DNA from: an uncultured Coriobacteriales bacterium
GTDB taxonomy: Bacteria > Actinomycetota > Coriobacteriia > Coriobacteriales > UMGS124
Assembly (NCBI GenBank): GCA_934636245.1
Contig: CAKUAI010000003.1
Coordinates: 120,305-184,304, forward strand
Direction of reading: 5' to 3'
DNA: 64,000 bases
Part shown: positions 13,901-63,938 of the stretch, piece by piece
Layout of the letters: the number at the start of each line of letters is the position of its first letter
Position numbering within the stretch: the stretch's first letter is position 1
The notes under the pieces: model-generated
Told to the model about the DNA's origin: nothing
What the model saw: only the letters and a program-made list of their open reading frames with translations
Databases searched by the model: none
Position numbers and translations under genes: made by a program

Positions 13901-14040
13901 GTTTTCTCGGATGTATCGGGGGCAGACTGCTGACATGCTTCGCAGATTACAATGGGTTCGCCGTGCCCAACATGTGAGATGCACCGGCTGAGCGCGAGGC
14001 GTCGTCCGTTGATGAGTGCGTGCTTCGGGAGGCTGGGCAT
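10948..14040 (-). CDS. PrimPol (archaeo-eukaryotic primase)-like domain fused to an SF2 DEAD/DEAH helicase and a C-terminal PLD-like domain
   Basis: ATG 14040 (AAGGAG 9 nt upstream) inside track ORF 10948..14085. AEP motifs: VLVADFDD, SGNGGHAWLFF, GFGNLISLPFQG. Helicase motifs: Walker A CAPTGFGKT, motif II DECHH, motif VI QQSGRLHR. The C-terminus (IIIAAPFVS ... GHSGPSCYAIFDQQTIWYGS) looks PLD-like with a degenerate HxK. From memory, RefSeq names similar proteins 'TOTE conflict system archaeo-eukaryotic primase domain-containing protein'; this is unverified. Confidence 0.8.
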   Translation of the reverse strand: MPSLPKHALINGRRLALSRCISHVGHGEPIVICEACQQSAPDTSEKTVLYATQNEWLQGAADLSEWAESEGIVTTASSTADKLRLFQSLFHGRDNVYAHGYQRKDGGIAYVPACSNEWKANVCPKANPTKRKSSGLCAHCPNRDLKPLTDQVLIAHFRGADDRLRDVVGLYVTDENCETSVLVADFDDTGWQQNVAAYRDAGRQLDLDIAVERSRSGNGGHAWLFFEEPVTAKLARNLGCALITLACSLSKTMRLDAYDRLFPTQDTLVEGGFGNLISLPFQGRAQREGNSVFVDDAFNPYPDQWEFLSRIRKVTEKQAETSVAICRKRTGGLLGTFAYTQLDKECAGFSAPSADTTSPAQQSGRARSFMRRPKHPLTPQDFPALTVLTESDMVYVPLEGLSAAACNRIRRLAAFANPEFYRAQAMHQSVWRKPRVIDLSEDRSDCITLPRGCKENLLLLFEESGAAYTILDERFSEGRIKAEFAGRLRPAQEDAAQALLEYDTGILCAPTGFGKTVVAASLIARLGLPTLVLVPRTPLLEQWVEQLGEFLEIQDTRPPQLTPKGNLSKKKRPLVGAIGAGKTAPSGLVDVATFQSLFEKSDIPGERQVKDLVQNYGLVICDECHHAAAPQLERVLKAVRAQRVYGLSATPKRADGLDPIVTMLCGPVRHSIDVRAQAAEQGFARHLVTRYVAMHFPNLTEDASFAQVLDAACDHADRTRFIAQDVLDALHEGRTPLVVSKRKKHARELARLIEEGGAEVRLLVGEGTPRQRREAIAEALQASTKQSLSLVATESYLGEGFDMPNLDALFLSTPISWSGNVTQQSGRLHRTSEGKTDVRVYDYVDLNVPMLERMYKKRLKTYVRLGYEPIGSDWQKPGDTAGPTAESNSTNAGTSAFITAERFLATFVHDIREARRSIIIAAPFVSATLVTRLESSLLDATQRGITATCLVQKATVAADALNRLSNCGCRVELGHSGPSCYAIFDQQTIWYGSLPLLAFPKPDDCSLRLISPEAAHQMMEDLKVNKEKET

Positions 14041-14180
14041 GGCTGCTCGTCTCCTTCCCCAGGGGGTATGGCCGTTGTTGTGCAATTGTAGCAGGCGGCC
14101 GGGGCGATTAAAGTAGAGAGACGGCTTGCTCTTGGTGAATTACCCGCAAAGCAGTGTCGCACAGTGGCATTCGGCAATAC

Positions 14181-37248: not shown

Positions 37249-37409
37249 GCGGGTCCTCGTTGCCTCGGTGAAACGTACGTAACTAAAGGTTACCCGAGAC
37301 GTAATCTCAAGTGGCGCTTTACGCATTGCATCCGTCTAAACTCCCCACTCGAAAGGCGGCGCAAAGGGGCGCCGTCGCACGGGGATTTCCAGAAATGGAG
37401 ACGATTCAC

Positions 37410-39149
37410 ATGCAGAAGAACATGAGCCGCAAGAGCTTCCTCGCAGGTGCCGGCACGGTTGCCGCAGCTGCAGTTGCTGGCAGTGCCGCCGTCGCGCTCG
37501 CCGACGACGCCAAGCCCGCCACTCAGGCCGCCGAGGGCAACATCATCACGCGCGAGACGCTCGAGCAGGGCACCTGGTCGTTCATGGTTGCTCCCGAGCC
37601 CGTCGCCGAGGACCAGATCGCCGAGACCAAGACGCACGAGATCGTCGTTGTGGGTTCCGGTGCCGCCGGCCTGTGCTGCGCGGTGTCGGCCGCTGAGCAG
37701 GGTGCCGACGTCATCGTGTTCTCCGCTGGCACCAAGCCGCTTTCGCGCGGCGGCTCCTTCCAGGCTATCGGCTCCAAGTACCAGGCCGAGCACGGCGTCG
37801 AGGACGACCCCGAGAAGCGCCGCGTCCAGACCCAGATCGACCTCATCGCCGGCGCCCGCATGATGGATTCCCGCAAGTGGATGCGCTGGGAGAACAATTC
37901 CGCCGAGTCCATGGACTGGATGATCGACAAGATGGCCGCCCGCGGCATCGAGTGTTCGCTCGCCATGCCCTACGCTGACGTCGACGGCGTGCTCGACACC
38001 CCGGCCGGCGAGCACAACTTCTGGACGGCCGACGCCCCCATGGGCGTTTTCCAGGGCGCCCCGCTCGTGGCCAAGGCCTGGGCCGACATCTTCACCGAGG
38101 ACTACGGCGGAGAGATCGACTACTCCACCGTCGCCCAGTACCTCATCCGCGAGGACGACAATACCGGTCGCGTGAGCGCGGTCATCGCCCAGGACGCCGA
38201 CGGCAACTACATCAAGTACGAGGCCACCAAGGCCGTCGTTCTCGCCACGGGCGACTTCTCCAAGGACTTCGACATGATGGCCCACTTTGCCCCCTACGCT
38301 TGGGAGCACTTCAAGGACGTCCTCACGCCCGAGGTGGACTACGACGCCGAGATGGTCTACACCGGCCTTATGCCTGGTACGGGCCAGAAGATGGGTCTGT
38401 GGATCGGCGCCGGCTGGCAGAAGACGTTCCCGAACCCCTCTGCCATCAACGGCGCCGTGTCGGGCCCCACGCACTGCGTGGTCGACTCCTTCTGGGGCAT
38501 CAACCTGGCCAAGGACGGCCGCCGCTTCCACAACGAGAACACCAACTTCGCCTTCGGCGCCTACACGCGCATGAACCTCAAGGGCGGCACCGCCTACGCC
38601 ATCTGGGACTCCCAGTACGCCTACACGCAGGATTCCTGGGACGGCCTGGGCGCCACCATCGACAACGTGAACGGCGAGATGTTCATGCCCAAGACCCCCG
38701 AACAGCTCATCGCCAGCTGGGATGCCAACGTCGAGTCGGGCAGCTACTTCAAGGCCGACACGCTTGAGGAGCTCATCGACCAGATGGAGGGCCTCGACAA
38801 GGAGAACGCCCTGGAGTCCATCGCCAACTACAACACCTACGCCAAGAACGGTCTTGACGAGGAGTTCCACGTGAACCCCGAGCTGCTGCACCCCATCGAG
38901 ACCGGCCCGTTCTACGGCTGCATCACGCCTGGCTCTACGTTCCTGTGCGTCATGGGCGGCCTGCGCTGCGATGAGCACTGCCAGGTGATGGACACCGCCG
39001 ACGAGCCCATCGAGGGCCTCTACGAGGTCGGCACCATGATCGGCGACTTCTACGGCGGCGCCTATAACTTTGCCTTCCAGGGCCAGAACCTGGGCGCATG
39101 CTGTACTACCTTCCCCTACCTCGTCGGTCGCGACCTCGCCGCCCTTTAA
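37410..39149 (+). CDS. Tat-exported FAD-dependent oxidoreductase, fumarate reductase flavoprotein family (substrate unknown)
   Basis: ATG 37410 gives MQKNMSRKSFLAGAGTVAAAAVAGSAAVALA. FAD motif IVVVGSGAAGLCCAVSAAEQGADVIVF. C-terminal IEGLYEVGT. Confidence 0.85.
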   Translation: MQKNMSRKSFLAGAGTVAAAAVAGSAAVALADDAKPATQAAEGNIITRETLEQGTWSFMVAPEPVAEDQIAETKTHEIVVVGSGAAGLCCAVSAAEQGADVIVFSAGTKPLSRGGSFQAIGSKYQAEHGVEDDPEKRRVQTQIDLIAGARMMDSRKWMRWENNSAESMDWMIDKMAARGIECSLAMPYADVDGVLDTPAGEHNFWTADAPMGVFQGAPLVAKAWADIFTEDYGGEIDYSTVAQYLIREDDNTGRVSAVIAQDADGNYIKYEATKAVVLATGDFSKDFDMMAHFAPYAWEHFKDVLTPEVDYDAEMVYTGLMPGTGQKMGLWIGAGWQKTFPNPSAINGAVSGPTHCVVDSFWGINLAKDGRRFHNENTNFAFGAYTRMNLKGGTAYAIWDSQYAYTQDSWDGLGATIDNVNGEMFMPKTPEQLIASWDANVESGSYFKADTLEELIDQMEGLDKENALESIANYNTYAKNGLDEEFHVNPELLHPIETGPFYGCITPGSTFLCVMGGLRCDEHCQVMDTADEPIEGLYEVGTMIGDFYGGAYNFAFQGQNLGACCTTFPYLVGRDLAAL

Positions 39150-46399: not shown

Positions 46400-46607
46400 G
46401 TCAACTCCCGTCTAACCATGTCAAGCAGCAGTTATTCCATTTTGTACTCAACATAGTGCCAAAACGGACCTTCCTGATACTTTCACCTGAGCCCATAGTA
46501 GTCCATGAAGACGGCATCGAAAAGGGAGGTGCCGCCTGATTCAGCTGGAGCCGGTTTTCGGTAAGCGGGTGGGGGATGAGGATCGGCACGTCGAAAGGGG
46601 AGCTAGC

Positions 46608-48293
46608 ATGACTGCAAACGTTATGTCACGCAGGGGTTTCGCCGGAGCCGTGGGTGCGGCTGGTATAGGCATGGCAGCGACGGGCTTTGTCAATGCCGCC
46701 ACAGCTCGCGCTGATGAGGCTTCTGTCTTGATTGGAAACCTTCCCGCAGAATGGGATGCTGAAGCCGATGTTGTTGTCATCGGCATGGGTGGAGCTGGCT
46801 TGTCTGCTGCCATTGCAGCAAAGCTCGCTGGAGCAGAATCGGTCATTACACTTGAAGCGGCCCCTGAAGAAGAGGCCGGCGGCACGACTCGTGTTTCGGG
46901 CGACATGTTGATGATTCCGGATGACGTGGATGGTGCGGTTGCTTATCAGACGGCCTTGAATGGCCCTTACGCCGTCGACCCTGATTGCATGAGGGCATGG
47001 GCAGAAGGTGTGACGGCCAACTATGACTGGCTCACGCAGGATCTTGGTTTTACGTTGGGCGATGCGGCGGCCGGTCGTCCCGAGTTTCCCGGCACTGTCG
47101 GTGGTGAGCACATCAAGACCTACTATGTCGACGGCATCTGTGGCATGAGCTCGCTGTGGATTCCCCTCATGGACAAGGCAAATGAGCTGGGCGTTGAGGC
47201 GCTGTATAACGCTCGCGCTGTCAGGCTTATTCACAACTATGAGACGAAGGAAGTCTACGGAGTTCTGACTGAGGACGGTCGAGCCATCAAGGCACGCAAG
47301 GGTGTGGTAATGGCATGCGGCGGTTTTGCTGGCAATCCTGAGATGATGCAGGATTATATGGCGTCCATGGGCTGCCCCAACACGTTCTTCCTTGGTTCTC
47401 CGTACAATGTGGGCGATGGTGTGAAGATGGCCCAACAGATCGGCGCCGATCTTTGGCACATGAATAGCTATGCGGGTGCTAGCACCTGCGTTCGAGCTAT
47501 GAGTGCTGATTCCATCATCTGCGACATTCCCTATCCCACCGGGCATGACTATATTTTTGTCAACGGTGAGGGAAAGCGTTTCATGTACGAGGAAAAGCGT
47601 TCCATTGTCCGCCATGGTAAGCAAAAGGACAAGGGAATCTGGCCTCTGCTTACCGTGCCTTCTCCTTCCTGGATGATTCTGGGAGGCAACAAGAGCGGCA
47701 CTATTGATATTCTGGGTATGGTCACCTATATGGATTGGCCTGTCATCATGGGCAAGGGGCTCAAGACGAATCAAGAGCTCATCGATGCCGGCATTATGTT
47801 CAAGGCCGACACAATCGAAGAGCTTGCCGAAAAAATTGGTTTCCCGCCCGAGACGCTTGCCGAGACCGTTGCGACATACAACCAGTATTGCGCTGACGGT
47901 GCCGATCCTGAATTTGGTCGTGGCGAAGAGGTCTATACCAGTAACCTGTTTAATGCCGTTGAAGGCAAGGACCAAATTTCCAATGCAGGCGAAGGCGAGG
48001 GAGGCGGCGAGGAGGAGCTTGCCATCATGGCGTTTGACCTTGAGCCGCTTGAGGGCCCGTTCTATGGCATCGAAATCGCCTTGGGTATTCTGAACAGCCA
48101 GGGCGGCGCCCGCCGCAATGGCCTGTGCGAGGTGCTTGATACGGATGGTCAGCCCATCCCGCGTCTCTACTCTGCTGGAGAGTTCGGCAGTATTTACGCT
48201 TATATGTACAATGGCGGCGGCAATATTTCCGAAGCCGTGGCAACTGGTCGCGTTGCCGGCCAACAGGCGGCCGGTCTTGACAGCTGGGAATAA
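46608..48293 (+). CDS. Tat-exported FAD-dependent oxidoreductase, fumarate reductase flavoprotein family (substrate unknown)
   Basis: ATG 46608 gives MTANVMSRRGFAGAVGAAGIGMAATGFVNAATARA. FAD motif VVVIGMGGAGLSAAIAAKLAGA. C-terminal IPRLYSAGE. Confidence 0.85.
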   Translation: MTANVMSRRGFAGAVGAAGIGMAATGFVNAATARADEASVLIGNLPAEWDAEADVVVIGMGGAGLSAAIAAKLAGAESVITLEAAPEEEAGGTTRVSGDMLMIPDDVDGAVAYQTALNGPYAVDPDCMRAWAEGVTANYDWLTQDLGFTLGDAAAGRPEFPGTVGGEHIKTYYVDGICGMSSLWIPLMDKANELGVEALYNARAVRLIHNYETKEVYGVLTEDGRAIKARKGVVMACGGFAGNPEMMQDYMASMGCPNTFFLGSPYNVGDGVKMAQQIGADLWHMNSYAGASTCVRAMSADSIICDIPYPTGHDYIFVNGEGKRFMYEEKRSIVRHGKQKDKGIWPLLTVPSPSWMILGGNKSGTIDILGMVTYMDWPVIMGKGLKTNQELIDAGIMFKADTIEELAEKIGFPPETLAETVATYNQYCADGADPEFGRGEEVYTSNLFNAVEGKDQISNAGEGEGGGEEELAIMAFDLEPLEGPFYGIEIALGILNSQGGARRNGLCEVLDTDGQPIPRLYSAGEFGSIYAYMYNGGGNISEAVATGRVAGQQAAGLDSWE

Positions 48294-50437: not shown

Positions 50438-51955
50438 TTATCGGGTCGATTGAACGCGGGTTTCAAGCAATGCGATGAGCTCCTCGCGGCTATGTGTATC
50501 GGTTTTGGCGTAGATGTTGCGTAGGTGCGTGCGAAGTGTACTTTCAGTTATGCACGCAGTATCGCAAATGAAAGTATTACTGTTTCCTTGGAGTACGAGC
50601 AACGAAATCTCTCGCTCGCGTTCAGAGAGTCCTAGGCCACCGCAAACATAGGTCATTTCTTCAAGCGTGATTGCGCTCAAGTCCATCGAGGATGCCTTAC
50701 TGGGCGTTTCATATCCACCGCGTTCTTGGGCTTCTTCCATTTCAAGGCGTTTGACCACCTCGCCATCTTCGAGAAGGAATACCGATACGAGTACGGTGAC
50801 AGCGATGATGGCGGCGGCTGTCCCTACGAGGGACAGGCCAGATAGGTTGAGTTGAGAGCAGAGAATTTCGCTGGTGGTACTGCAGGTAGTGAGGGCAATT
50901 TGGCCGACGGCGAACACGAATGCGCCGCCCCTTGGGTCGTGCTCGCCTATACGTGCCCAGAGCGTCCAGGTAAAAACGCGGAAAAACGCCCAGGCGCCGC
51001 CAATGGCCAAGGCCTCATAGTGTTGACTGCCTGGCTCTAGTACCAAGGTAAGGAGCAGACAGCCAATGACGAATGGGGTAATGAGGCGGTAAAGCCGGGA
51101 GAAACTGCCAATTTTACCTTGTGTGACCTGGGCGATTGCCAAGATAACAAGGCAAACACAGATGCCTGCGACAAGTGTATAAAACTCAGTGGAGACGGTC
51201 GTTTTTGTCTCTGAGAGATGGTTGGTGGCGATAAAGACTGCGCCGAGGGCACCCGTGGCGATGAAGGGCTTGAGGCTAGGGAGCGCATGGGTGGAGGAGC
51301 CGTCCCTTGAACCGTGGCTTGATTCCTCAGTGCCCCAGCCTTTTAAAGCCTCAGTTCTCAGGGCCAACAGAGTGACTCCTGATAGCAAGGGGAGTATGGG
51401 TCTAAAAACCAAGGCCGCCCCAGGAGAGAGGCATGCCTCTATCAAGCAGATACCGAACGAAATGCCGTAGCCGCCCGCAGTACAGCCAAGCATGTGAGAG
51501 GCGCCACAGGAGCTTAGGAGTTCTCCCCACAGCACGACAAGCCCCGCGCTCGTAGCGAACAGAATTCTTCCGATGGCAACGCCAACAAAGTGCGCCTCGT
51601 CGCCGATCCACCCACAAAGATAAAGCAGCACGGTTCCAAGGGCTGGTCCCATACAGGCGATAGAAATGAGCCAGCGGCGCTCAATAAGCATGCCAGGTTT
51701 CCGGTGCGTGCTCACAGCGAAAACAAGCAGCAGGAATAAGAGAAGGGTAGTGGCGGCATAGCCCCATATGCCGAGTGTCTCACGCACGCCGGACAGAGGG
51801 GCGGGGAAAAGAGTGGGCGAAATATCAATAGTTTGCCAACCGAGGTAGCAGCCGATGCCAACGGACATAAGCATGCGAGCGGCCGGACTGAAATCGGTTT
51901 TTCCACGCGCCCTGTGCGGGGAATTGTTCTCGATGTCCCGCGCCTCTTCTGCCAT
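50438..51955 (-). CDS. LuxR-family transcriptional regulator with a polytopic N-terminal membrane domain
   Basis: About 10-12 TM helices followed by the HTH LSEREREISLLVLQGNSNTFICDTACITESTLRTHLRNIYAKTDTHSREELIALL. Divergent from the reductase gene at 52213. Confidence 0.85.
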   Translation of the reverse strand: MAEEARDIENNSPHRARGKTDFSPAARMLMSVGIGCYLGWQTIDISPTLFPAPLSGVRETLGIWGYAATTLLLFLLLVFAVSTHRKPGMLIERRWLISIACMGPALGTVLLYLCGWIGDEAHFVGVAIGRILFATSAGLVVLWGELLSSCGASHMLGCTAGGYGISFGICLIEACLSPGAALVFRPILPLLSGVTLLALRTEALKGWGTEESSHGSRDGSSTHALPSLKPFIATGALGAVFIATNHLSETKTTVSTEFYTLVAGICVCLVILAIAQVTQGKIGSFSRLYRLITPFVIGCLLLTLVLEPGSQHYEALAIGGAWAFFRVFTWTLWARIGEHDPRGGAFVFAVGQIALTTCSTTSEILCSQLNLSGLSLVGTAAAIIAVTVLVSVFLLEDGEVVKRLEMEEAQERGGYETPSKASSMDLSAITLEEMTYVCGGLGLSEREREISLLVLQGNSNTFICDTACITESTLRTHLRNIYAKTDTHSREELIALLETRVQSTR

Positions 51956-52212: not shown

Positions 52213-53652
52213 ATGAATGACAGCACTTTGAACCGTCGCTCTTTTGTTGCCCTGTCGTGCGCTGCTGCTGGTATGGTTGCGGCTGCTGGTACCGGTACTG
52301 CCAAGGCTGATGACGTTAAGGCCCAGGCTGTTGCTTTGGGCAATGCCGACGTCAACTTTGCCGAAGAAGTCGAAGTCCTCATTGTTGGTGCTGGCCTCTC
52401 TGGCATGATGGCTGCCTGGGAGATTGCCTCTGCGGGGCATCAGGTTCTCATTGCTGAGCAGAATGGCTTCCTTGGTGGCGACGCCATTTACTCTGCCGCT
52501 TGCATGATGTGCACTACTGCGGAGCTTACCAAGGAGGAGCGCCCTGAGAAGTACATGGATGAAGAAACCATCCGCACGCTTTTTGCTCCCTACTACGATT
52601 CCGAGCTTGCCCTTGACAAACTTGTTCAAAATCAGATGTGGGCAGGCAAGTGGATTGACCTGCTGCATTATGAATGGGGCTACGAGTTCCAGCCCCGCAT
52701 GGAGTGCCCCTATCTCCAGGCGTACTTCCCGAAGGATGGTATCTGCACTATGTATACCGCCTTTGACCTCATGGATCAGAAGATTCAAGAGGCCGGTGCG
52801 ACGTATGAGTACGACATTGAGATGACCACCCTTATCGTCGACGCCGAGGGTACTGTGTGTGGCGCACGCTTCCTGCAGAAGGACGGCACCTACAAGGACA
52901 TCAAGGCGGGCACTGTCGTTATTGCAACGGGCGGTTATGTCTCCAACCAGGAGTGGATGACCCAGTACGCGCCCGACTACGCCGATCTGGGCAACATCGT
53001 CTCCGGCCGCACTGGCGAGGGCATCAAGGCGGGTCTGGCAGCCGGTGGCACTCTGTTCGGCATGGGGCCCGTGGGCAACCTCAATCCTAAGTACGAGGCT
53101 GGCCACATGCTGGGCGTTCACTACCCCATCCTGGGCATTCTTCCCAATGGCAAGCGTTTTTACTGCGAGACTGCTGTTCACAACGCGGCCACCGGTGCCA
53201 TCGCCGCCGGCTATCACGAGTGGTATACCATTTTTGATGACGTCGCGATGAATGGTGTTGATCAGGAGCTCCTCAAGCATGCGGGAGATGCGGTTCAGAC
53301 CGCCGCTTCCTTTGAGGAGCTGGCTGAAATGACGGGTATTCATCCCGATTACCTGCAGGCTACCTTCGATGAATGGGCTTCGATTTGCAACGGTGAAGCA
53401 GAGGACCCCTTTGGTCGCACGCTTTTCCTGCAGGAGCTGCAGCCGCCGTTCTACTTCATCCGTAACGTTCCCGTGCGCTACAAGTCCCTTGGCGGCCTGA
53501 ACGTCGACCTGGAATACCATGTGCTCGATGCCGACGAGAACCCCATTCCCAACCTTTATGCCTGCGGCTGCGCTGCTGGCACTGAAGATATCTGCCCCGC
53601 TGCCGCTTCCGGCATGATTGTGGGCACGACGGTGGTTAACGATCTGGCATAA
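52213..53652 (+). CDS. Tat-exported FAD-dependent oxidoreductase, fumarate reductase flavoprotein family (substrate unknown)
   Basis: AAGGAGG RBS. Signal peptide MNDSTLNRRSFVALSCAAAGMVAAAGTGTAKA. FAD motif VLIVGAGLSGMMAAWEIASAGHQVLIAEQ. C-terminal IPNLYACG. Confidence 0.85.
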   Translation: MNDSTLNRRSFVALSCAAAGMVAAAGTGTAKADDVKAQAVALGNADVNFAEEVEVLIVGAGLSGMMAAWEIASAGHQVLIAEQNGFLGGDAIYSAACMMCTTAELTKEERPEKYMDEETIRTLFAPYYDSELALDKLVQNQMWAGKWIDLLHYEWGYEFQPRMECPYLQAYFPKDGICTMYTAFDLMDQKIQEAGATYEYDIEMTTLIVDAEGTVCGARFLQKDGTYKDIKAGTVVIATGGYVSNQEWMTQYAPDYADLGNIVSGRTGEGIKAGLAAGGTLFGMGPVGNLNPKYEAGHMLGVHYPILGILPNGKRFYCETAVHNAATGAIAAGYHEWYTIFDDVAMNGVDQELLKHAGDAVQTAASFEELAEMTGIHPDYLQATFDEWASICNGEAEDPFGRTLFLQELQPPFYFIRNVPVRYKSLGGLNVDLEYHVLDADENPIPNLYACGCAAGTEDICPAAASGMIVGTTVVNDLA

Positions 53653-53661
53653 GAAATGAAA

Positions 53662-53712
53662 AGCGCCCCCGCCTGGCTCACGTGTGTGGACCAAGCGGGG
53701 GCGCTGGTTTTA
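53662..53712 (+). terminator. intrinsic terminator
   Basis: AGCGCCCCCGC - 22 nt - GCGGGGGCGCT followed by GGTTTTAT. Confidence 0.65.
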
Positions 53713-53982
53713 TCGTGCGTGGATGGTGACGTGTGCAGGTTCGGGGCTTCTGCGGCCATCCGCCGTCACAGAGCGCACCAGTAGCTCGTAGTCGCCAACC
53801 TCAGTGGGTGTGAACGTGTAGCTCCAGCGTACGGCAACACTGACCTGAGAGTTGGAGGTGTCGAAGAACGCCCACTTCTCGCCGCCATCAAGGGAGAATT
53901 CGACTCCAATGATATGCGCGTCAAAATCATCGGCGTACCCGTCTACCTCCGGGGACTGTGTTTTCATCTCTGATGTCCGCAT
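53710..53982 (-). CDS. stand-alone Ig-like domain homologous to the C-terminus of the cytochrome-Mo fusion protein (possible gene remnant)
   Basis: VDGYADDFDAHIIGVEFSLDGGEKWAFFDTSNSQVSVAVRWSYTFTPTEVGDYELLVRSVTADGRRSPEPAHVTIHAR aligns by eye with FQGFADAYEVPVTAVEISMDKGATWTTYELGDTDVSRWINWKFEFTPEKAGGYLLMVRGVAADGSVSTDPSQVFFNVR of 62475..63938. Confidence 0.5.
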   Translation of the reverse strand: MRTSEMKTQSPEVDGYADDFDAHIIGVEFSLDGGEKWAFFDTSNSQVSVAVRWSYTFTPTEVGDYELLVRSVTADGRRSPEPAHVTIHAR

Positions 53983-54123: not shown

Positions 54124-55377
54124 TCAGGCAACCTGATGGCGTTTGAACGTCCTTATCGCGAGAGCAATGCCCGCCGCGAAAAGCAGGAGGTAGAAAGCGG
54201 CGAGGAACACGGGCAGCTCGACCACGACAGGGCCTATGGCATACGAGACCATGTCGAAGAGGTTGAAGGGGTTCAGTGCGTCGTAGGGGAACAGGTAGAT
54301 GATGTGGTTCGCGATGCTGCTCGTCATCGTCGGCACGAAGACCGGAATCAAGATGAGAGCAACGCCGATTGCGAGGATTCCCATGGGGCTGTCTATCTTG
54401 GCCGATAGCGCGAGCACTATCCCAAGGAGGGCGAGGGTTGCGAGATACCCGACGAGGCAGCATGTGAGGGCAGCGGCTGACAGGCTTATGTCGTAGGTGC
54501 ATGTGATGCTGTAGATCTGGATGGGTAGACCTGCGCCGTCGGCTCCGTAGAAGACGAGCGTTATTGCCAGGAAGACGAGTGTGAAGACCCAGTATATTGC
54601 GCTTGCCGCGATTACAGAGGCCGCCGCCTTCGCGCGCCCGAGCCTTGATTTGCCGAACTTGGTGGACAGCAGGATGGCGTCGGTTTTGGCCTGGTACTCC
54701 CCGTTGAACACCGATGCGCACGTTATCACGACTGCGAGCATCGCGAATATGAGGAACTGGGCGAGGTTGAGGAAGTTCTCCCATCCTCCTGCGTATCCGT
54801 ACTCGATGGGCGTGTGCACGGCTTGCGCCTTCTCGTTCCAGAACGCCCTCTCCTCGTCGTTGTACGAAAGGACATCGTTCGCGTCGAGCTTGGAGGCTAT
54901 CTTCGAGCGGACTTGCCCGTAGAGGTCGACGGTGCCAGTCGTGTCGATAGTGGCTGCCACGGACACGGGCATCTGGTAGCCTTGCATCCAAGGGCCTGTC
55001 AGCAGCGCCATGAGGGCGCCGTTCTTCGCCCTGAACTCCCAGTACTCGCCCGCCTTCTCCCCGTAGGGCTTCCTGTCCATCCTGTACTCTGACCTGACCT
55101 CGCTGTCCGGACCGATGAACTCCTTGAACTCGCGGAGCGCCTCGGTGGCCTCCTCGTCGGTGATGGGGCCTGCGAGCGCTTCCGCGTTTGCCTTTATCGC
55201 GGTGATGGCGGCAGTGCCCTCGAATTCGGTGCCCATCTCCTTGGGGTTGAGGGCGTACTGGGACGTTATGTTGAAGAAGGCCATGACCGCGACCAACGCC
55301 AGGACGGCTGCTATGGAGACCTGCGAGACGCGCCTTGAGAGCACCTTCTTGAGCTCGTATCTGATGAGGCTACCCAC
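54124..55377 (-). CDS. ABC-2 type transporter permease
   Basis: One N-terminal TM helix, a large extracytoplasmic loop, then a C-terminal cluster of 5 TM helices. Its start overlaps the ATPase stop by 8 nt. Confidence 0.7.
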   Translation of the reverse strand: MGSLIRYELKKVLSRRVSQVSIAAVLALVAVMAFFNITSQYALNPKEMGTEFEGTAAITAIKANAEALAGPITDEEATEALREFKEFIGPDSEVRSEYRMDRKPYGEKAGEYWEFRAKNGALMALLTGPWMQGYQMPVSVAATIDTTGTVDLYGQVRSKIASKLDANDVLSYNDEERAFWNEKAQAVHTPIEYGYAGGWENFLNLAQFLIFAMLAVVITCASVFNGEYQAKTDAILLSTKFGKSRLGRAKAAASVIAASAIYWVFTLVFLAITLVFYGADGAGLPIQIYSITCTYDISLSAAALTCCLVGYLATLALLGIVLALSAKIDSPMGILAIGVALILIPVFVPTMTSSIANHIIYLFPYDALNPFNLFDMVSYAIGPVVVELPVFLAAFYLLLFAAGIALAIRTFKRHQVA

Positions 55378-56323
55378 GGTGCACTCCTTTCCTGTTTTCG
55401 ATTGCGTCCTGTCCCACTTCCGCTTTCGTCCGCGAAACCGGCAGGCCCCCGGACTGCTCCTGGAAGAGGTAAAGGTAGACGTCCTCCAGCGTCGGCTCCA
55501 CGGCGCGCGCGCTCGGATGCGGACGCTGCTGCGCCACCACGCGAACGATGGCAGAGCCGTCCTGGGCGTAGCGGATGTTGCCCACCGTGAGCGATGCCGA
55601 CATGGCGTCTGCCTCCCTCGGGGCGACAGCGCACTCCCAGACGCATCCCCTGATGCCCCCTGTGATCTCGTCGACCGTGCCCGTCGTGATGATGCCGCCA
55701 GCGCGCATCACGAGGATCTTGTCGGCGATGTACTCCACGTCCGAGACGATGTGCGTGGAGAGGATGACGATCTTGTCTTGGGCGAGAGAGGATATGAGGT
55801 TGCGGAAGCGGACGCGCTCCTTGGGGTCGAGCCCTGCGGTGGGCTCGTCGAGCACGAGGACAGACGGGTCGTTGAGCACCGCCTGGGCGATGCCGAGCCG
55901 CTGCTTCATGCCGCCGGAGAAGGTCTTGACCTTCCGTTTTGCGGCCTCTGCGAGGCCGACAACGCCCAGGAGTTCGCGTGTACGCACTTTTGCCTGCTGC
56001 GCGGTGAGCCCCTTGAGCGATGCCAGGTACATCATGAAGTCGCACGCCGTGAAATCCGGGTAGTAGCCGAAGTCCTGGGGCAGGTACCCGAGGCGCGCCC
56101 GATAGCCGTCGCCAAGCTGGTCTATGGGGATGCCCCCGAATAACACGCTTCCCGATGTTGGCCTCATGACGTCGCATATCATGCGCATGAGCGTGGTCTT
56201 GCCTGCGCCGTTGGCCCCGAGTAGGCCGTAGACGCCGGGCGTGAAGCTGAAGCTCACGCGATCGACAGCGATATGGCTGCCGAACTGCTTGGTGAGCCTG
56301 TCAAGCCTGAGTTCCATGTTCAC
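55370..56323 (-). CDS. ABC transporter ATP-binding protein
   Basis: Walker A GANGAGKTT, signature FSGGMKQRL, Walker B VLVLDEPTAGLD. Confidence 0.9.
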   Translation of the reverse strand: MNMELRLDRLTKQFGSHIAVDRVSFSFTPGVYGLLGANGAGKTTLMRMICDVMRPTSGSVLFGGIPIDQLGDGYRARLGYLPQDFGYYPDFTACDFMMYLASLKGLTAQQAKVRTRELLGVVGLAEAAKRKVKTFSGGMKQRLGIAQAVLNDPSVLVLDEPTAGLDPKERVRFRNLISSLAQDKIVILSTHIVSDVEYIADKILVMRAGGIITTGTVDEITGGIRGCVWECAVAPREADAMSASLTVGNIRYAQDGSAIVRVVAQQRPHPSARAVEPTLEDVYLYLFQEQSGGLPVSRTKAEVGQDAIENRKGVHRG

Positions 56324-58460: not shown

Positions 58461-59189
58461 ATGCCGGACGCTCCGAAGATAGACCGGGCGCACGTCATAT
58501 CGTGGCTTTCTGAACCGCGATATAGCAAATATCTCGAAGTAACACGAGGCGATGACGCCGTCGCTCTCAACCTCTACCTCTGGAACATCGGCCTTGCGCA
58601 GGCCGTCTTGAAAGACGTCTCGTTCTTCGAGGTCGCCCTCAGAAACGCGTACGACAGGGCAATATCCTCCACCTGGAGCGGGTCCGACCACTGGCTGTTC
58701 GACGACGCCTCTCCCGTAAGGCACCCGATCCTCAGGACGAATAAGCGCGGACAGGTCAACGATGCCAACCGACTGAACAGGAATTCGATTGACCACCTGA
58801 GAAGCGGCCTTCGCGAGAACGCGACCGCAGACGACATCGTCTCGAACCTCACGCTGGGTTTCTGGGCCCACATGACGGACCGCAGCCATGAACGCGATTT
58901 GTGGATTCCAATCATCCATAAGGCATGGCCAAAGGGGGCAGACCGAAACGACGTCAATGAATGGATAGCGGGAATCAACAAGATCCGTAATCGTGCCGCC
59001 CACCACGAACACCTCTTCGCACATGCGGGATGCGAATGCGGGACTTTGCGATCGTGCCGAAACGCCGCTTTGCTGTTCGCTCAGCTTGAGCCAATTGCGC
59101 ACAGTTATATTTACGAAGGAAGCATCAATAGATGCTCGGTCGACAACTACCTGGAGGAGCACCCGGCCCCTTGCGACGTTGCGGTCTGA
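58461..59189 (+). CDS. Abi-like protein (Abi_2 / AbiD-AbiF type abortive-infection family)
   Basis: Family hallmarks: N-terminal ..RYSKYL...LYLWNIGLAQAVLKDVSFFEVALRNAY, mid LTLGFWAHM, and C-terminal INKIRNRAAHHEHLF. Confidence 0.75.
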   Translation: MPDAPKIDRAHVISWLSEPRYSKYLEVTRGDDAVALNLYLWNIGLAQAVLKDVSFFEVALRNAYDRAISSTWSGSDHWLFDDASPVRHPILRTNKRGQVNDANRLNRNSIDHLRSGLRENATADDIVSNLTLGFWAHMTDRSHERDLWIPIIHKAWPKGADRNDVNEWIAGINKIRNRAAHHEHLFAHAGCECGTLRSCRNAALLFAQLEPIAHSYIYEGSINRCSVDNYLEEHPAPCDVAV

Positions 59190-59220: not shown

Positions 59221-59613
59221 TTTGATACCGATTCGTTTGTTTTTGCTCCGCCCGCCGATTTTGGTTGTGAATGCTGCCCAAATGTGCCCAGTGAATTGCT
59301 CGATGAGATGCCCTCAGGCGACTATGTCGTGTATTACCCCGAATCTATCGTTGGCGCTGACGGATCGAATCGATTCATCCACGACGTGAACCGCCTGCTT
59401 GATTATATTGAGGAGCACAATCTGGAGGTAGCCGGCGATTATTACGGGATTGTACTGGCAGAGAGTGAACTTTTTGGCTATGCAGAGGGAGACATGCTCT
59501 ATAAGATGTGCATCCCGGTGACTAAAAAGCGCATAGGGGAAAGTCAGAGAATCGTTGCCCCGCGGGGCATCCTTGGGCGCATGAGACAACTTGGCAAGAA
59601 GCAGGGGCAGTAG
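59221..59613 (+). pseudogene. startless C-terminal fragment of a GyrI-like (MerR/AraC effector-binding) domain protein
   Basis: ..MPSGDYVVYYPESIVGADGSNRFIHDVNRLLDYIEEHNLEVAGDYYGIVLAESELFGYAEGDMLYKMCIPVTKK resembles the second half of GyrI-like domains. There is no plausible start or HTH domain between the Abi stop (59189) and this reading frame. Confidence 0.4.
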
Positions 59614-59757
59614 CGAGCAGTTTCATATTGCCTGCTCAAATCTCGTTTTATTCCTCTTGGAGCTGGGCCCTTGCCGCTCCCAAACGAAAACGTGCCGACC
59701 AGGTCGCGAGGGACCCGGCCGGCACGGCAGGCAAAGCGTGCGTGAAGCGGCGGGTGG

Positions 59758-61308
59758 CTACGCCCTGGCCAGCTCGTTGAAGCGGAAGTTGCCCAGGGGG
59801 GTCTGATGGAAGCCCACGATGTCGGCGCGCGTGGCGTTGGGCCAAGGCATCGTGAACAGGGGAATCCACACGGCCTGCTCGCGGAAGGTCTGCTGCATCT
59901 GGTGGTACATCTCGACGCGCTTGTCGTCGTCGGTCTCAGCGTTGCAGGCGTCGTTGAGGGCGACCATGTCGTCGGGCTGGCGGAAGTTCGTATCGAAGCC
60001 GGAAGCGCCGTCGAAGTCGAAGATCCACTGCATGAACTCGGAGGGATCCTGGATGTCGTCGGACCAGTAGTCGATGATGGCGTCGAAATCCATGGCGTAC
60101 ATGCGGGTCTTGTACGAGGTGGCCTCGATCTCCTCGATGGAGACGGTCACGCCAATCTTGGCCCACTGCTGCGTGAGAATCATGGCAATCTGCTTGTCGA
60201 CCTCGTTGCCGCTGCGCATGAGGATGGTGATCGGGAAGCCACCGTCCAGGCCGGCCTGGGCGAGCAGCGCCTTGGCGCCCTCGATGTCGGGCTCGACGGG
60301 GTCGAGGGAGTGGTCGCAGTACTTGCTGGTGGGGGCGAAGATGGTGCCGATGGCGGTGCCGTAGCCGAAGAGCGCGACGTCCACGATCTCCTGGGGGTCC
60401 GTGGCCTTGATGAGGGCCTGGCGGGCCTCGTCATGGGCGAGGTACTCGTTCTCGACGTTGAGCGACATGAAGCGGGTGATGGTGGAGGGCAAGGCCGCAA
60501 CGACGCAGTTGGGGTCGCTCTCAATCTGCATGAGGGAGGAGAGGGGCAGGTCAACGGCGATGTCGATGTCGCCGCCCTGCAGCTGGATCTGACGGGAGGC
60601 GTCGTCGGCGACAACGCGGAACTCGATGTCAGCCGTGGCGGGCACGCCGTCCTCGCGGTAGTAGGGGTTGGCAGTCATGGCCAGGTACTCGCCGCGCTTC
60701 CACTCCTTGATCATGTAGGTGCCGGTGCCCAGGGGGCCGTCGACGTAGCGATCCGCGCCGACCGACTCGAAGTAGGCCTTGCTCTGGACGCCCAGGGTAA
60801 AGATGCACAGGTTGGCGAGCGTGCTGGCGGCCTCAGACTTCATGTACACGATGACGGTCGTGTCGTCGGGGCACTCGACATGGTCGAGGTTCTCGACGCA
60901 CATGTGCCAGTTGGAATCCTCGGACTGGATGGCGCGGTCGAACGTGAACTGCCAGTCCTCGGCGGTGACGGGGGAGCCGTCGGAGAAGGTGAGGCCTTCC
61001 TTGACCTTGAAGGTGTAGGTGAGGCCGTCGTCGGAGACGTCGTAGCTCTCGGCCAGGCACAGCTCGATGTCGGAGCCGTCGTCGCTGGTCATGACAAGGC
61101 CCTCAAGGATGAGGTTGAAGATGAAGATGTTGGTGTTGCCGACGCAGGTGACGGGGTCCAGGTTGTCGGAGTCCTGAGCACGGCCGATGACGATCGGCTT
61201 GGACTCGCCGTCGGCGAGCGCGCCGGCCGGTGCCAGGGCAGAAAGGGCGGCCAGTGCAGCGGCGCCCTTGAGGAAGCCCCTGCGGTTCATGGTGAAGTCA
61301 GAGCTCAT
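59758..61308 (-). CDS. ABC-type substrate-binding protein, family 5 (peptide/nickel/opine type), RR signal, no cognate permease nearby
   Basis: ATG 61308 (AAGGTGG upstream) gives MSSDFTMNRRGFLKGAAALAALSALAPAGALA. The body reads like SBP_bac_5 (..VIGRAQDSDNLDPV.., ..YMIKEWKRGEYLAMTANPYY..). Confidence 0.75.
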   Translation of the reverse strand: MSSDFTMNRRGFLKGAAALAALSALAPAGALADGESKPIVIGRAQDSDNLDPVTCVGNTNIFIFNLILEGLVMTSDDGSDIELCLAESYDVSDDGLTYTFKVKEGLTFSDGSPVTAEDWQFTFDRAIQSEDSNWHMCVENLDHVECPDDTTVIVYMKSEAASTLANLCIFTLGVQSKAYFESVGADRYVDGPLGTGTYMIKEWKRGEYLAMTANPYYREDGVPATADIEFRVVADDASRQIQLQGGDIDIAVDLPLSSLMQIESDPNCVVAALPSTITRFMSLNVENEYLAHDEARQALIKATDPQEIVDVALFGYGTAIGTIFAPTSKYCDHSLDPVEPDIEGAKALLAQAGLDGGFPITILMRSGNEVDKQIAMILTQQWAKIGVTVSIEEIEATSYKTRMYAMDFDAIIDYWSDDIQDPSEFMQWIFDFDGASGFDTNFRQPDDMVALNDACNAETDDDKRVEMYHQMQQTFREQAVWIPLFTMPWPNATRADIVGFHQTPLGNFRFNELARA

Positions 61309-61505
61309 GTCTCGTACCACCTTTGGTTGGTCCGGTCACGCCTGTGCCCCTTTGACACGACGTGGCGGCGGAAGGTTGGCCGCATTGTAAGCCACTTCTT
61401 CCAACAAGGCGATAGATATGCATCATTTCGCTTAAAAAGGCTTAAATACTAATTTTTGAGCGTAAATGACGCATACAGGGGCTCATATAGAGTCTACGGC
61501 GGGTA

Positions 61506-61542
61506 ACAAAAACCCGCAGGGAACAAAACTGTTCCCTGCGGG
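61506..61542 (-). terminator. intrinsic terminator after 61586..62392
   Basis: On the minus strand: CCCGCAGGGAAC - 6 nt - GTTCCCTGCGGG followed by TTTTTG. 12-bp perfect stem. Confidence 0.8.
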
Positions 61543-61585
61543 CTTCCTGGGAGGCAATGGTTGCGCCGTGATGGCGCCGTCGCCT

Positions 61586-62392
61586 TTATGCGCCAGCGAG
61601 AATGCCGACGTTGGGACGGTTGACGTACTGGTCCTCGGGTGCGTCCTCGCTGCCGGGGATGGCGGGTGCGACGGCCTCGGCGGTTACCTCGATGGACACG
61701 ACGTTGCGCGTGAAATACTTGGCGGCGGTGCCGTCGAGCCACACCTGGTTGGTGCCGCCCACGGAGGCGCCCAGGTCCTCGCCGTTGATGGCGCTGGCGA
61801 TGATGGCCCTGCGCTGCATGACGTAATCAAGCGGCAGCGACATGGTGTAGCCGTCGGCGGAGGTCAGCGTGACGGTGTTGGCGTTGGCTGCGGGCCTTGC
61901 GCGCTCGATGAGGGCGGCCAGGGACACGCCGCTCACGTCGGCGTTCACCACAGCGCGGCCGCCGGCGGGGTTCGCGGCGCAGGAGCAGCCCATGATCTGA
62001 GACAGCGTGCCGTCATCCTGGGCAATCTCACCGATGGTGGCGTTGTAGGGGTTGGCCACGTCGCCGCACACGGCGATGGACCAGTCGTCGGCCTGGGTCA
62101 CGGCAAGCTCGGTGGAGGCGCCGCACAGCGTGGCGCTGGCCTTCTGGAAGACGTCGGCGATACGGTCGTTGGGCGTAACCGTCGTCTGGTCAAAGGAGAA
62201 CTCGCCCTGAACGTTGGGAACGCGCACGACGCCGCTGGCAAGGGCCTCTCCCTCAACAGCCTGGCTGGAGGCGGGCACGGTCGTCCAGGTGGCAGATGCA
62301 TCGGCAGCCGGGCTGGCGGCAATGGCGAGGCCGGGTACGAGCAGGGCAGCCGCTCCGGCGGCGCTCAGCACTTTTGTCGTTGAGACTTTCAT
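61586..62392 (-). CDS. secreted molybdopterin-dependent oxidoreductase (sulfite-oxidase fold, Oxidored_molyb-type domain)
   Basis: ATG 62392 gives MKVSTTKVLSAAGAAALLVPGLAIAA (Sec signal). Core pattern ..MGCSCAANPAGG.. VSGVSLAALIERA....VTLTSADGYTMSLPLDYV...AIIASAINGEDL......NQVWLDGTAAKYFTRNVVSIEV matches the C...G..L..LL......v...a.DGY.......a.l....NGe.L fold signature. Confidence 0.65.
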   Translation of the reverse strand: MKVSTTKVLSAAGAAALLVPGLAIAASPAADASATWTTVPASSQAVEGEALASGVVRVPNVQGEFSFDQTTVTPNDRIADVFQKASATLCGASTELAVTQADDWSIAVCGDVANPYNATIGEIAQDDGTLSQIMGCSCAANPAGGRAVVNADVSGVSLAALIERARPAANANTVTLTSADGYTMSLPLDYVMQRRAIIASAINGEDLGASVGGTNQVWLDGTAAKYFTRNVVSIEVTAEAVAPAIPGSEDAPEDQYVNRPNVGILAGA

Positions 62393-62474
62393 TTCTAGCT
62401 CCATCCTCGTAGTGCGGGGTAGCTTGGTTTGAGTGTCAATTTGAGTGTCAAGTTCAGGTAGAGCCTTGCGCGGC

Positions 62475-63938
62475 TTACCTCACGTTGAAGAAGACCTGCG
62501 AGGGGTCGGTGCTGACGGAGCCGTCGGCTGCGACGCCGCGAACCATAAGCAGGTAGCCGCCGGCCTTCTCGGGCGTGAACTCAAACTTCCAGTTGATCCA
62601 GCGAGAGACGTCGGTGTCGCCCAGCTCGTAGGTCGTCCACGTGGCGCCCTTGTCCATGGAGATCTCGACGGCGGTCACGGGTACCTCGTAAGCGTCGGCA
62701 AAGCCCTGGAACTCAATGGTCTCGCCCAGCGGGAAGATGGTGCCGTTCTTGACGTAGAAGATGGAGGTGTTCGGCTTGTTGAACATCTCGCCGGTCTTGG
62801 GGTTCGTGAAGCCCTGGAAAATGCGAGGAGCGTTGTCCTCATAGGTGAACTTCAGCTCAACAACGCGCTTGGTGTAGTGGCAGCCACCGGCAGGGGCGGT
62901 CCAAAGCTGGACGGGGTAGCCCTGGAGCATGCCGAGGGGCTCGCCGTTGATCTCGGTCACGAGCATCATGCTGTCGAGGTACTCGTAGACGTACTCCATG
63001 GGCAGCGGGTACACGTCCCAGCCGTCATCGGCAACGGAGTGCATGGCGGTGGCGGCGGGGTCGACGCCGGCATCCTCAAGGATGGTGGCCAGCGGGATGC
63101 CCTTGACGACGACGTTGCACACATAGGCGCCGGCGGGCGGGTTGGTCTGGCAGTCCATCTTGATGGTGCGCTCAACCATCTGGTCCTCGTAGTCGGAGAG
63201 CTTGAAGGTGAACGGGTTGGAGGCCGCGTCGCCGTCGACGGTGATCTCCCAGTTCTCATAAGCCTCGACCGACGTGTCGTTGTCGGGGGTCACGCCGCGG
63301 TGGTCGTTGTTCTCCCAGTAATAGAAGACCTCGTCGGTGTCGGTGATGGTGTCCTGCGTGAAGCTGAACGTGGCGCCCGACAGGTCGGAGACGTTGGAGA
63401 CGCCCATGTAGGCCTCGTTGTACTTCACGAGGTCCCACATCTCGAACTCGCCGGTGGCGGGGCTCACATAGTGACACGAGTCGCAGCTACCGCCCAGGGC
63501 GGCGAACTCCGCGCTCGTGTTGTGGATGGCGTGCATGCTGTCCTGGAAGTACAGCGCCTTGGAGTGGCACATGTAGCAGAACTTGATGGTCGCGTCGACG
63601 TTATAGGGGTTCCACAGCTCGGGGTGCGGCATATCCATTTCCTGGGTTACATCCAGGATGGAGGTGTGGCAGCCGCTTTCGGTGCAGCCGCGCTTGTCGC
63701 CCTTGAGCGAAGTGGTGTTCCACAGGAACGGGTCGCTCGGAATGGTCTGGAGCTGCGTGCCGTCCTCGAGCGTCACAACCTCAGGGGAGTGCTCCGCCAT
63801 TGCGACGGCGGCCTTGTCCTTCTGAGCGACCTCCTCAGCCATGCCCGTGTTCGGTGCCAGGCCGGCGGCCATCATTGTGCCAGCAAGCACGCATGCGGCG
63901 CCGCATGCCAGCAACCTTGTGGCAATCCTTCCCTCCAT
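62475..63938 (-). CDS. fusion protein: N-terminal triheme c-type cytochrome (c3-like) + sulfite-oxidase-fold Mo domain + C-terminal Ig-like domain
   Basis: ATG 63938 gives MEGRIATRLLACGAACVLAGTMMAAG (signal/anchor). Heme sites: CTESGCH (CX4CH), CYMCH and CDSCH. The Mo-domain pattern MDCQTNPPAG...VVVKGIPLATILEDAG......SVADDGWDVYPLPMEYV...MLVTEINGEPL...GYPVQLWTAPAGGCHYTKRVVELKF is followed by a beta-rich Ig-like tail. Confidence 0.7.
   Translation of the reverse strand: MEGRIATRLLACGAACVLAGTMMAAGLAPNTGMAEEVAQKDKAAVAMAEHSPEVVTLEDGTQLQTIPSDPFLWNTTSLKGDKRGCTESGCHTSILDVTQEMDMPHPELWNPYNVDATIKFCYMCHSKALYFQDSMHAIHNTSAEFAALGGSCDSCHYVSPATGEFEMWDLVKYNEAYMGVSNVSDLSGATFSFTQDTITDTDEVFYYWENNDHRGVTPDNDTSVEAYENWEITVDGDAASNPFTFKLSDYEDQMVERTIKMDCQTNPPAGAYVCNVVVKGIPLATILEDAGVDPAATAMHSVADDGWDVYPLPMEYVYEYLDSMMLVTEINGEPLGMLQGYPVQLWTAPAGGCHYTKRVVELKFTYEDNAPRIFQGFTNPKTGEMFNKPNTSIFYVKNGTIFPLGETIEFQGFADAYEVPVTAVEISMDKGATWTTYELGDTDVSRWINWKFEFTPEKAGGYLLMVRGVAADGSVSTDPSQVFFNVR

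Follow-up and report, generated by a model that had tools for sequence, protein, structure and literature searches.

The stretch of DNA analyzed here, referred to as the window, comprises 64,000 nucleotides of contig CAKUAI010000003.1 (positions 120,305 to 184,304) from the assembly GCA_934636245.1 of an uncultured Coriobacteriales bacterium and is 99% identical to a contig of the uncultured human-gut Coriobacteriales metagenome-assembled genome (MAG) MGYG-HGUT-00585. Close to its end, two genes named P1 and P2 are located on the reverse strand that encode exported proteins with the fold of sulfite oxidase (SUOX), the P1 protein being additionally equipped with a triheme cytochrome c domain. 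A third gene downstream of P2 encodes a family-5 solute-binding protein (SBP), and an initial annotation of the sequence had grouped all three genes into one extracytoplasmic module. The features of the P1-P2 unit are, with coordinates referring to the window:

62475-63938, reverse strand: P1, encoding an exported protein of 487 amino acids (aa) with a triheme cytochrome c, a SorA-like SUOX-fold domain and an immunoglobulin (Ig)-like C-terminus (open reading frame (ORF), ribosome binding site, Pfam)
63837-63938, reverse strand: N-terminal Sec-type signal or anchor of P1, residues 1-34, MEGRIATRLLACGAACVLAGTMMAAGLAPNTGMA (sequence reading)
63666-63686, reverse strand: heme motif 1, C85-x4-C90-H91, at least 90% conserved in 100 representatives
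63564-63578, reverse strand: heme motif 2, C121-x-x-C124-H125, invariant in alignments A1 and A3
63471-63485, reverse strand: heme motif 3, C152-x-x-C155-H156, invariant in alignments A1 and A3
62835-63263, reverse strand: SUOX-fold (Oxidored_molyb) domain of P1, residues 226-368 (Pfam, profile alignment, Foldseek)
63150-63152, reverse strand: codon of Cys263, which occupies the place of the Mo ligand Cys104 of SorA and aligns to the Cys of 6y0k and 2blf
62475-62771, reverse strand: C-terminal Ig-like domain of P1, homologous to the SUOX dimerization domain (profile alignment to SorA residues 250-349)
62393-62474, reverse strand: P1-P2 spacer of 82 nt without terminator (sequence reading)
62428-62451: 12-nt tandem duplication in the spacer, two units of TTGACACTCAAA (sequence comparison)
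61586-62392, reverse strand: P2, encoding a Sec-exported, heme-less paralog of the SUOX part of P1, 268 aa (Pfam, E 2e-17; hhalign)
61979-61987, reverse strand: C136-S-C138 motif of P2, with C138 on the Mo-ligand Cys (SorA Cys104 and the Cys of 6y0k) (alignments)
61505-61542, reverse strand: intrinsic terminator closing the P1-P2 unit, an 18-pair stem-loop followed by the U-run UUUUUGUU

The coding region of P1 starts with an ATG at position 63938 that is preceded by the ribosome binding site AAAGGGGA, and the protein's N-terminus is hydrophobic and devoid of a twin-arginine (RR) motif. The following domain displays the features of a multiheme c-type cytochrome, namely three CXXCH-type motifs and one extra conserved His per heme. 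The CX4CH form of the first motif represents a lineage-specific insertion of two residues, with CXXCH being present at this position in most sequences of the homolog alignment. The additional conserved residues H105, H136 and H139 are candidate distal heme ligands; H136 and H139 show no variation in A1 or A3, and H105 shows none in A1 and at least 90% conservation in A3. Since these three non-motif His residues match the three motifs in number, P1 probably carries bis-His electron-transfer hemes. All matches of P1 to multiheme models of Pfam and NCBIfam remained under threshold, so that the heme domain was not assigned to a named subfamily and the label 'c3-like' given to it in the initial annotation was not retained.

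The central part of P1 matched the Pfam family Oxidored_molyb (PF00174) with an E-value of 6e-17 and 62.2 bits at a cut-off of 24, and its tail gave a weak match to Mo-co_dimer. The closest known protein is the sulfite dehydrogenase SorA, which was both the best profile match of the P1 family (E 9e-28, with C263 falling on the Mo ligand Cys104) and the best fold match of an AlphaFold (AF2) model of P1 with a mean confidence score (pLDDT) of 85.8 (SorA structure 2blf, E 4e-20). The model also matched the sulfite oxidase (SO) of Thermus thermophilus, SorT and chicken SO, the E-values ranging from 4e-20 to 1e-17 over ~340 columns, and YedY with an E-value of 1e-8. The P2 protein, which begins with a Sec-type signal (ending in …LAIA, followed by A), matched the same Pfam family with 63.8 bits, again at a cut-off of 24. 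Profile-profile comparison with hhalign identified P2 as a paralog of residues 176-487 of P1 (probability 100%, E 6e-75); a G-x-F-S-F-x-Q motif ahead of the domain and the Cys loop are common to both proteins, as is the Ig domain in the long forms of P2. Residues C90, C136 and C138 of P2 are invariant in alignment A2. Its structural model (pLDDT 73) gave E-values of 1e-10 to 1e-11 with nitrate reductase, SorA and YedY, and one of 1e-5 with PruR.

The physical arrangement proposed in the initial annotation was thus borne out, i.e. the joining of CX4CH, CXXCH and CXXCH motifs to an Oxidored_molyb domain and an Ig-like tail by sequence and Pfam, the SUOX fold of both proteins by Foldseek, and the CSC motif at a putative Mo-ligand position of a second SUOX protein 82 nt downstream by the alignment of its second Cys to SorA Cys104. 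The strong terminator postulated behind P2 folds with -31.5 kcal/mol (z -7.1), although it was not picked up by a simple consensus scan. In the P1-P2 spacer, each unit of the TTGACACTCAAA duplication contains a TTGACA hexamer; the 12-nt unit occurs as a single copy in other strains of the species (L003, L005, L015 and L089) and is duplicated in two (L002 and L004).

The distribution of the gene pair was deduced from a census of 80 loci (designated by L numbers) from GTDB species genomes and metagenome contigs, in which ORFs were called and scored with purpose-built hidden Markov models. The census yielded 84 non-redundant triheme-SUOX genes from Coriobacteriia and gut Clostridia. A heme-less SUOX paralog was located directly downstream on the same strand in 74 of them by an automatic rule and in two more in which it was masked by ORF overlap, giving 76 of 84. 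Five of the remaining genes are situated at contig ends and one is followed by only 442 nt of sequence, and the loci L030 and L039 showed no adjacent paralog in the available sequence. Among the 104 homologs of P1, full-length relatives reach down to ~30% identity, and relatives of P2 to ~30-35%. The residues C121, C124, H125, H136, H139, C152, C155, H156 and C263 are invariant in 100 representatives of clusters at 50% identity, and all three heme motifs are present in 97 of 99 full-length members. The Mo-ligand-position Cys and the heme motifs are accordingly kept in orthologs, as the initial annotation had required for its proposal. When the isolated heme domain was used as a phmmer query against 1.84 billion representatives, only 152 relatives were recovered, mostly fusions of 450-650 aa and otherwise short fragments. 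Homology of this domain to the small Cgr1-like multiheme cytochrome encoded beside a flavin reductase (L014:5218-5853) was considered and rejected, since the BLASTP matches were confined to the heme motifs (E 0.016). Several genomes contain paralogous copies, for instance five loci in Raoultibacter timonensis and three in the MAG of the window, and the clusters of the window P1, P2 and SBP proteins include more than 300 metagenomic member sequences each. The source annotations of the homologs read just 'molybdopterin-dependent oxidoreductase'. P1 and P2 are therefore a conserved two-gene module, and the view that the heme fusion and the tandem pair of Mo-type domains are uncommon can be restated as that of a conserved, uncharacterized arrangement.

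Genes recurring in the vicinity of the pair fall into the following groups:

29 of the 84 triheme-SUOX genes: LuxR/GerE regulators within 3 kb
about 15 of the 84 (~18%): NrfC-like 4Fe-4S protein with a twin-arginine translocation (Tat) signal and NrfD-like membrane protein, directly downstream
8 loci: MerR-type regulators
4 Clostridia loci: ResB, adjacent
23 of the 84: Ig-like proteins of ~92 aa without signal peptide
12 loci in Coriobacteriia and Clostridia: cytoplasmic Y_phosphatase3 proteins, protein-tyrosine-phosphatase (PTP)-like with an HCxxGKDRT loop, five of them fused to the same Ig-like domain

The export signals of the two proteins are of particular relevance for the cofactor of the SUOX domains. 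Lipoprotein signals (…LAAC, …LWAC, …AAGC) predominate among the P1 homologs, and those of P2 are of the Sec or lipoprotein type. An RR ahead of the hydrophobic stretch was missing in 50 of 55 and 83 of 92 P1 members and in 68 of 71 P2 members, whereas the same rule detected a Tat motif in 13 of 13 NrfC-like proteins encoded in the operons of the pair and in 50 of the 60 SBP clade members. At least ten members of the P1 family possess N-terminally fused FMN_bind domains with SGAT flavinylation motifs; together with the signals and the adjacent ResB, these fusions place P1 and P2 outside the cytoplasm. Periplasmic Mo enzymes are loaded with their cofactor in the cytoplasm and subsequently exported in the folded state via Tat (PMC10609526), and this known route of molybdenum cofactor (Moco) loading is therefore impossible for proteins lacking an RR. 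In bacterial sulfite oxidoreductases, moreover, the cytochrome c partner has been described only as a separate extra subunit (PMC3561395). The fusion of c-type hemes and a SUOX domain on a Sec precursor consequently implies either that the cofactor is loaded outside the cytoplasm or that the fold is used without Moco. The window organism itself makes Moco, as deduced from a DMSO-reductase-family gene that, in contigs with an identical P1, is located ~9 kb beyond a divergent 503-aa GerE-family regulator just past the window end. We know of no description of a loading of Mo-pterin outside the cytoplasm, and such a step would be needed if Mo-pterin resides at the Cys of P1 and P2, as is suggested by the position of this residue. 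It is tentatively proposed that the family either uses an extracytoplasmic insertion of a molybdopterin-type cofactor or has re-tooled the SUOX fold and its Cys for a Mo-independent redox catalysis fed by the fused hemes.

The pair is furthermore part of an island of reductase genes in the window, which contains the following members:

8255-10150, 16699-18690, 23884-25950, 37311-39149 and 46569-48293: five FAD_binding_2 reductase genes (Pfam), two of them with FMN_bind
~52213-53652: predicted sixth FAD_binding_2 reductase, deduced from the annotation of a related locus
14949-16430 and 50438-51955: LuxR/GerE regulators

The proposal that P1 and P2 form an extracytoplasmic redox module serving anaerobic respiration as a substrate-specific terminal reductase, with a substrate other than sulfite and with the SBP as a bystander, is given about even chances. 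Both proteins would be exported unfolded via the Sec or lipoprotein pathway, and P1 would take up three covalent bis-His c-type hemes outside the cell. These hemes may serve as an electron wire from the membrane quinol pool to the SUOX pocket holding the invariant Cys263. The quinol electrons would be delivered by the neighbouring NrfD/NrfC-type quinol dehydrogenase in some genomes and by a shared donor in the window genome, in which the quinol dehydrogenase must be encoded elsewhere because the window locus is devoid of NrfCD. SUOX enzymes dimerize, and P2 with its own Cys138 would most likely pair with P1 as a pseudo-homodimer. The best reading is that of a lipid-anchored, probably heterodimeric terminal oxidoreductase, for which we infer heme attachment, heterodimer formation and the direction of electron flow. 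The electron path from quinol over the triheme wire to the SUOX pocket is suggested by the NrfD/NrfC-to-multiheme layout, which mirrors the order NrfD, NrfC, NrfB and NrfA of the Nrf electron chain. The role as terminal reductase is deduced from the multi-copy nature of the family, its location amid inducible reductases and the flanking LuxR-type regulators. A reductive direction is favoured by the many paralogs per genome, the regulators, the reductase island and the published induction of the neighbouring reductase classes, since reductases of Eggerthella lenta adjoin such regulators and are induced by their substrates (bioRxiv 10.1101/2022.12.26.521950).

The gene pair was compared with characterized systems that share parts of its architecture. 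In SorAB of Starkeya novella, SorT/SorU and SoxCD, an extracytoplasmic SUOX Mo domain and an Ig-like dimerization domain are likewise combined with a c-type heme partner. In SorAB, however, a distinct subunit exported via Sec carries the heme and SorA itself is exported via Tat, whereas P1 combines three hemes with the catalytic domain on a single Sec or lipoprotein polypeptide; the partner of P1 is a heme-less SUOX paralog and that of SorA a cytochrome, and the sulfite-binding residues are absent from P1. R109 of SorA aligns to Pro268 of P1, an Arg being found at this position in no family member, and the region of Y236 is not conserved (the region of R55 and H57 lies outside the alignment). 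The NCBIfam equivalogs of sulfite dehydrogenases were matched with 45.7 bits versus a cut-off of 600 for SorA, 46.5 versus 420 for SoxC and 42.7 versus 570 for SorT, and the cut-offs for these models and for MsrP were missed about nine-fold or more, with P2 reaching 13.8 bits versus 207 for the MsrP model PRK05363. An identity as sulfite dehydrogenase or MsrP was consequently ruled out by the curated cut-offs and the missing residues of the sulfite pocket. The MsrP/YedY-MsrQ/YedZ system resembles the pair as a reductive SUOX enzyme outside the cytoplasm that is fed by quinol via hemes and has a short loop behind the Cys, but MsrP is exported by Tat and its b-type hemes reside in a separate membrane protein; the neighbourhood survey revealed no recurrent MsrQ or Ferric_reduct gene beside P1 and P2.

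To our knowledge, PruR of Agrobacterium (PDB 7kos, 7kom and 7rkb) is the only SUOX-fold protein that is Sec-exported and works without Moco. The Sec export of a SUOX fold is common to PruR and the P1-P2 pair, whereas PruR has a Trp where P1 and P2 have the Cys, its pocket is truncated (PMC11194511), it carries no hemes and it has the signalling partner DcpA; the neighbourhood survey of P1 and P2 revealed no diguanylate cyclase gene as a counterpart of dcpA. Similarity to NrfABCD is given by the Tat-exported NrfC-like 4Fe-4S protein and the NrfD-like protein encoded behind the pair in ~18% of the loci, which leave the triheme domain in the position of the NrfB carrier. The catalytic end of the chain is a SUOX fold and not a pentaheme nitrite reductase, though, and is fused to the carrier. 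The inducible, extracytoplasmic flavin and DMSO-family reductases of Eggerthellaceae (Little et al.) share with the pair their hosts, the gene islands, LuxR neighbours, the large number of paralogs and in part the FMN_bind fusions, but the catalytic fold of P1 and P2 is PF00174. Within the published surveys, the reductase arsenal of gut bacteria was counted by PF00384 and PF00890 only, to the exclusion of PF00174 (bioRxiv 10.1101/2022.12.26.521950), and a flavinylation survey contains no mention of PF00174, molybdenum or SUOX proteins (PMC8238504). A literature search revealed no described heme c-SUOX fusion and no Sec-exported molybdoenzyme. Accordingly, the SUOX fold is known, and the architecture, the partner and the export route of P1 and P2 are new.

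Several observations weigh against a quinol-fed molybdoenzyme as deduced above. The window P2 has no Ig domain and the small Ig-like proteins near the pair have no signal peptide, both of which leave the dimer model incomplete, and neither a quinol dehydrogenase nor a cytochrome c biogenesis gene was seen in the 64-kb window. The RR motifs are missing from P1 and P2 but present on the NrfC-like proteins of the same operons, and the Arg of the G-x-P-x-R-L-V-V-P motif of SorA and T. thermophilus SO is a Gln in both proteins. The contrast in export signals between the pair and its iron-sulfur partner and the loss of the canonical Arg would also fit SUOX domains without a Mo cofactor, in which the pocket holds an extracellular ligand such as a non-Mo pterin, a small redox molecule or a Cys-held metal that is reduced or oxidized by the hemes and functions as cofactor or is itself the substrate. 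A precedent is provided by PruR, in which a SUOX fold exported via Sec binds pterins in the absence of Mo (PMC11194511), and one may speculate that the PTP-like phosphatase encoded at 12 loci processes an exported cofactor precursor. This possibility is nevertheless regarded as doubtful, since P1 and P2 have an invariant Cys at the exact Mo-ligand position whereas PruR has a Trp and a truncated hairpin. In addition, Foldseek places both proteins nearer to Moco enzymes (1e-20 and 1e-11) than to PruR, which ranked outside the top 50 for P1 and at 1e-5 for P2, and no gene of the neighbourhood points to an alternative cofactor.

An oxidative direction, in which a reduced substrate is oxidized at the SUOX site as in a fused SorAB and the hemes convey the electrons to the quinone pool or to a different acceptor, appears improbable. 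NrfCD-type modules are reversible in principle, and sulfite dehydrogenases, whose Mo site passes electrons to a c-type heme partner (PMC3561395), are the nearest solved structures. The sulfite pocket of P1 is lost, however, with a Pro in place of R109 and no conservation around Y236, the scores for SorA, SoxC and SorT of 43-47 bits contrast with the 420-600 bits demanded, and the hosts are strict anaerobes with large reductase arsenals that carry the genes in a reductase island with LuxR regulators. The N-terminal FMN_bind fusions moreover resemble those of extracellular reductases. Even less probable is a non-catalytic electron conduit or surface binding protein in which the SUOX and Ig domains act as scaffold or binding modules and the hemes pass electrons to external acceptors. 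The lipid anchor, the multiheme nature and the Ig-like domains of P1 are compatible with such a function, as is a weak similarity of some members to MtrC/MtrF domains. The Cys at the active-site position is conserved as strongly as the heme ligands, though, the co-inherited paralog P2 keeps its own invariant Cys, and substrate specificity is suggested by the multitude of paralogs in a genome with regulators of their own.

With respect to the third gene assigned to the module in the initial annotation, the following features were identified:

59758-61308, reverse strand: gene of the SBP with Tat signal, a neighbour outside the module (Pfam SBP_bac_5)
59691-59726, reverse strand: terminator-like hairpin after the SBP gene (consensus scan)

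The assignment as an SBP_bac_5 protein with an RR signal proved correct, with an E-value of 3e-85 (286.9 bits at a cut-off of 32.4) and the Tat-type motif NRRGFLKG. The equivalogs of NCBIfam were missed (NikA, 199 versus 393 bits; GsiB, 166 versus 594; DppA, 124 versus 1005), and the separate promoter attributed to the gene could not be shown, as the promoter scan yielded no sigma-70-like site. The reported absence of ABC transporter components holds for an Opp-type importer, of which no permease or ATPase genes were present within ~10 kb, but not for ABC genes in general: a sigma/anti-sigma operon 3.4 kb from the SBP gene encodes an ATPase of the ABC_tran family (55370-56323) together with a membrane protein of 417 aa (54124-55377). 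An orphan Tat-exported SBP that delivers or senses the substrate of two Mo-domain proteins is suggested by the adjacent location of the three genes on one strand in the window species and by the missing Opp-type permease. This model is highly improbable and largely refuted by synteny. Only one of the 84 triheme-SUOX genes, that of the window species, has an SBP_bac_5 gene within 3 kb, and the strong terminator separates P2 from the SBP gene. The homolog P0198 (62% identity) heads a complete Opp-type operon with two BPD_transp_1 and two ABC_tran/oligo_HPY genes, and P0185 and P0191 (65-67% identity) are orphans in a conserved context unrelated to the pair. All three homologs carry RR signals, in line with the occurrence of Tat signals throughout the clade. 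Since the SBP homologs behave independently of the pair, the orphan status and the Tat signal of the SBP say nothing about the SUOX genes. The census and the homolog contexts thus ruled out the SBP as a module member and identify it as an unrelated bystander of P1 and P2. The idea that a Tat-exported SBP ferries the cofactor to the Sec-exported SUOX domains was likewise rejected, as there is no co-occurrence and the Tat signal is clade-wide, even on the homolog of the ABC operon.

Tat export after cytoplasmic cofactor insertion is treated as the rule for extracytoplasmic molybdoenzymes and as the reason why heme c and Moco usually reside on separate subunits. With three c-type hemes and a SUOX domain on a Sec or lipoprotein precursor, either this rule is broken or an old fold has acquired a new chemistry, and a substantial, though less than even, chance of a new cofactor biology is seen in the P1-P2 family. 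If so, a third class of respiratory-type reductases, equipped with small Ig-like proteins and a PTP-like phosphatase as an accessory set of its own, would have been overlooked in the 'high-reductase' gut bacteria. Human-gut Coriobacteriia and Clostridia harbour the family in abundance and encode it amid inducible reductases that transform dietary and host metabolites; the family falls outside the two Pfam families used for the census of gut reductases. Its cofactor and substrates would add a class to the redox metabolism of gut microbes, and identification of the cofactor would make an extracytoplasmic cofactor loading directly testable.

The recurrent Ig-like and phosphatase genes show additional peculiarities. 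Examples of Y_phosphatase3 genes are found at L040:6965-7651, L009:12866-13603, L011:12783-13820, L014:417-1487 and L025:10163-10894, and a Lancefieldella chromosome contains a compact phosphatase-P1-P2-Ig cassette amid housekeeping genes. Behind short forms of P2, the start codon of an Ig-like ORF frequently overlaps the P2 stop codon as ATGA (L009:10470-10748; also L040, L050 and L058), and this start falls exactly at the domain boundary of the long P2 forms (340-380 aa) that carry the Ig domain fused; the gene may be split here, or translational coupling or frameshifting may occur at this site. In the window, a 90-aa ORF (53710-53982, reverse strand; MRTSEMKTQSPEVDGYADDFDAHIIGVEFSLDGG...) that is homologous to the Ig-like domain of P1 and has no signal peptide is the last gene of the sigma/anti-sigma/ABC-2 operon, and a second copy is located just past the window end beside a LuxR gene (L002:7832-8122). 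No Pfam cut-off was reached by the ~92-aa Ig-like ORFs.

The reductase island of the window also includes an MFS transporter gene (20276-21736) and, at 10948-14085 on the reverse strand, the gene of a 1045-aa protein with an AEP-TOTE primase (E 1.5e-78) and a ResIII/DEAD helicase, which represents a TOTE-type conflict (defence) gene. An Abi_2 gene of the abortive-infection type is situated directly downstream of the SBP gene, next to a short ORF (58461-59189 and 59308-59613, both on the forward strand). The C-terminus of this ORF (…EEHNLEVAGDYYGIVLAESELFGYAEGDMLYKMCIPV) is similar to the C-terminal portion of MerR-type regulators located beside P1-P2 pairs at eight other loci, and by this resemblance the ORF looks like a truncated MerR remnant without helix-turn-helix domain.

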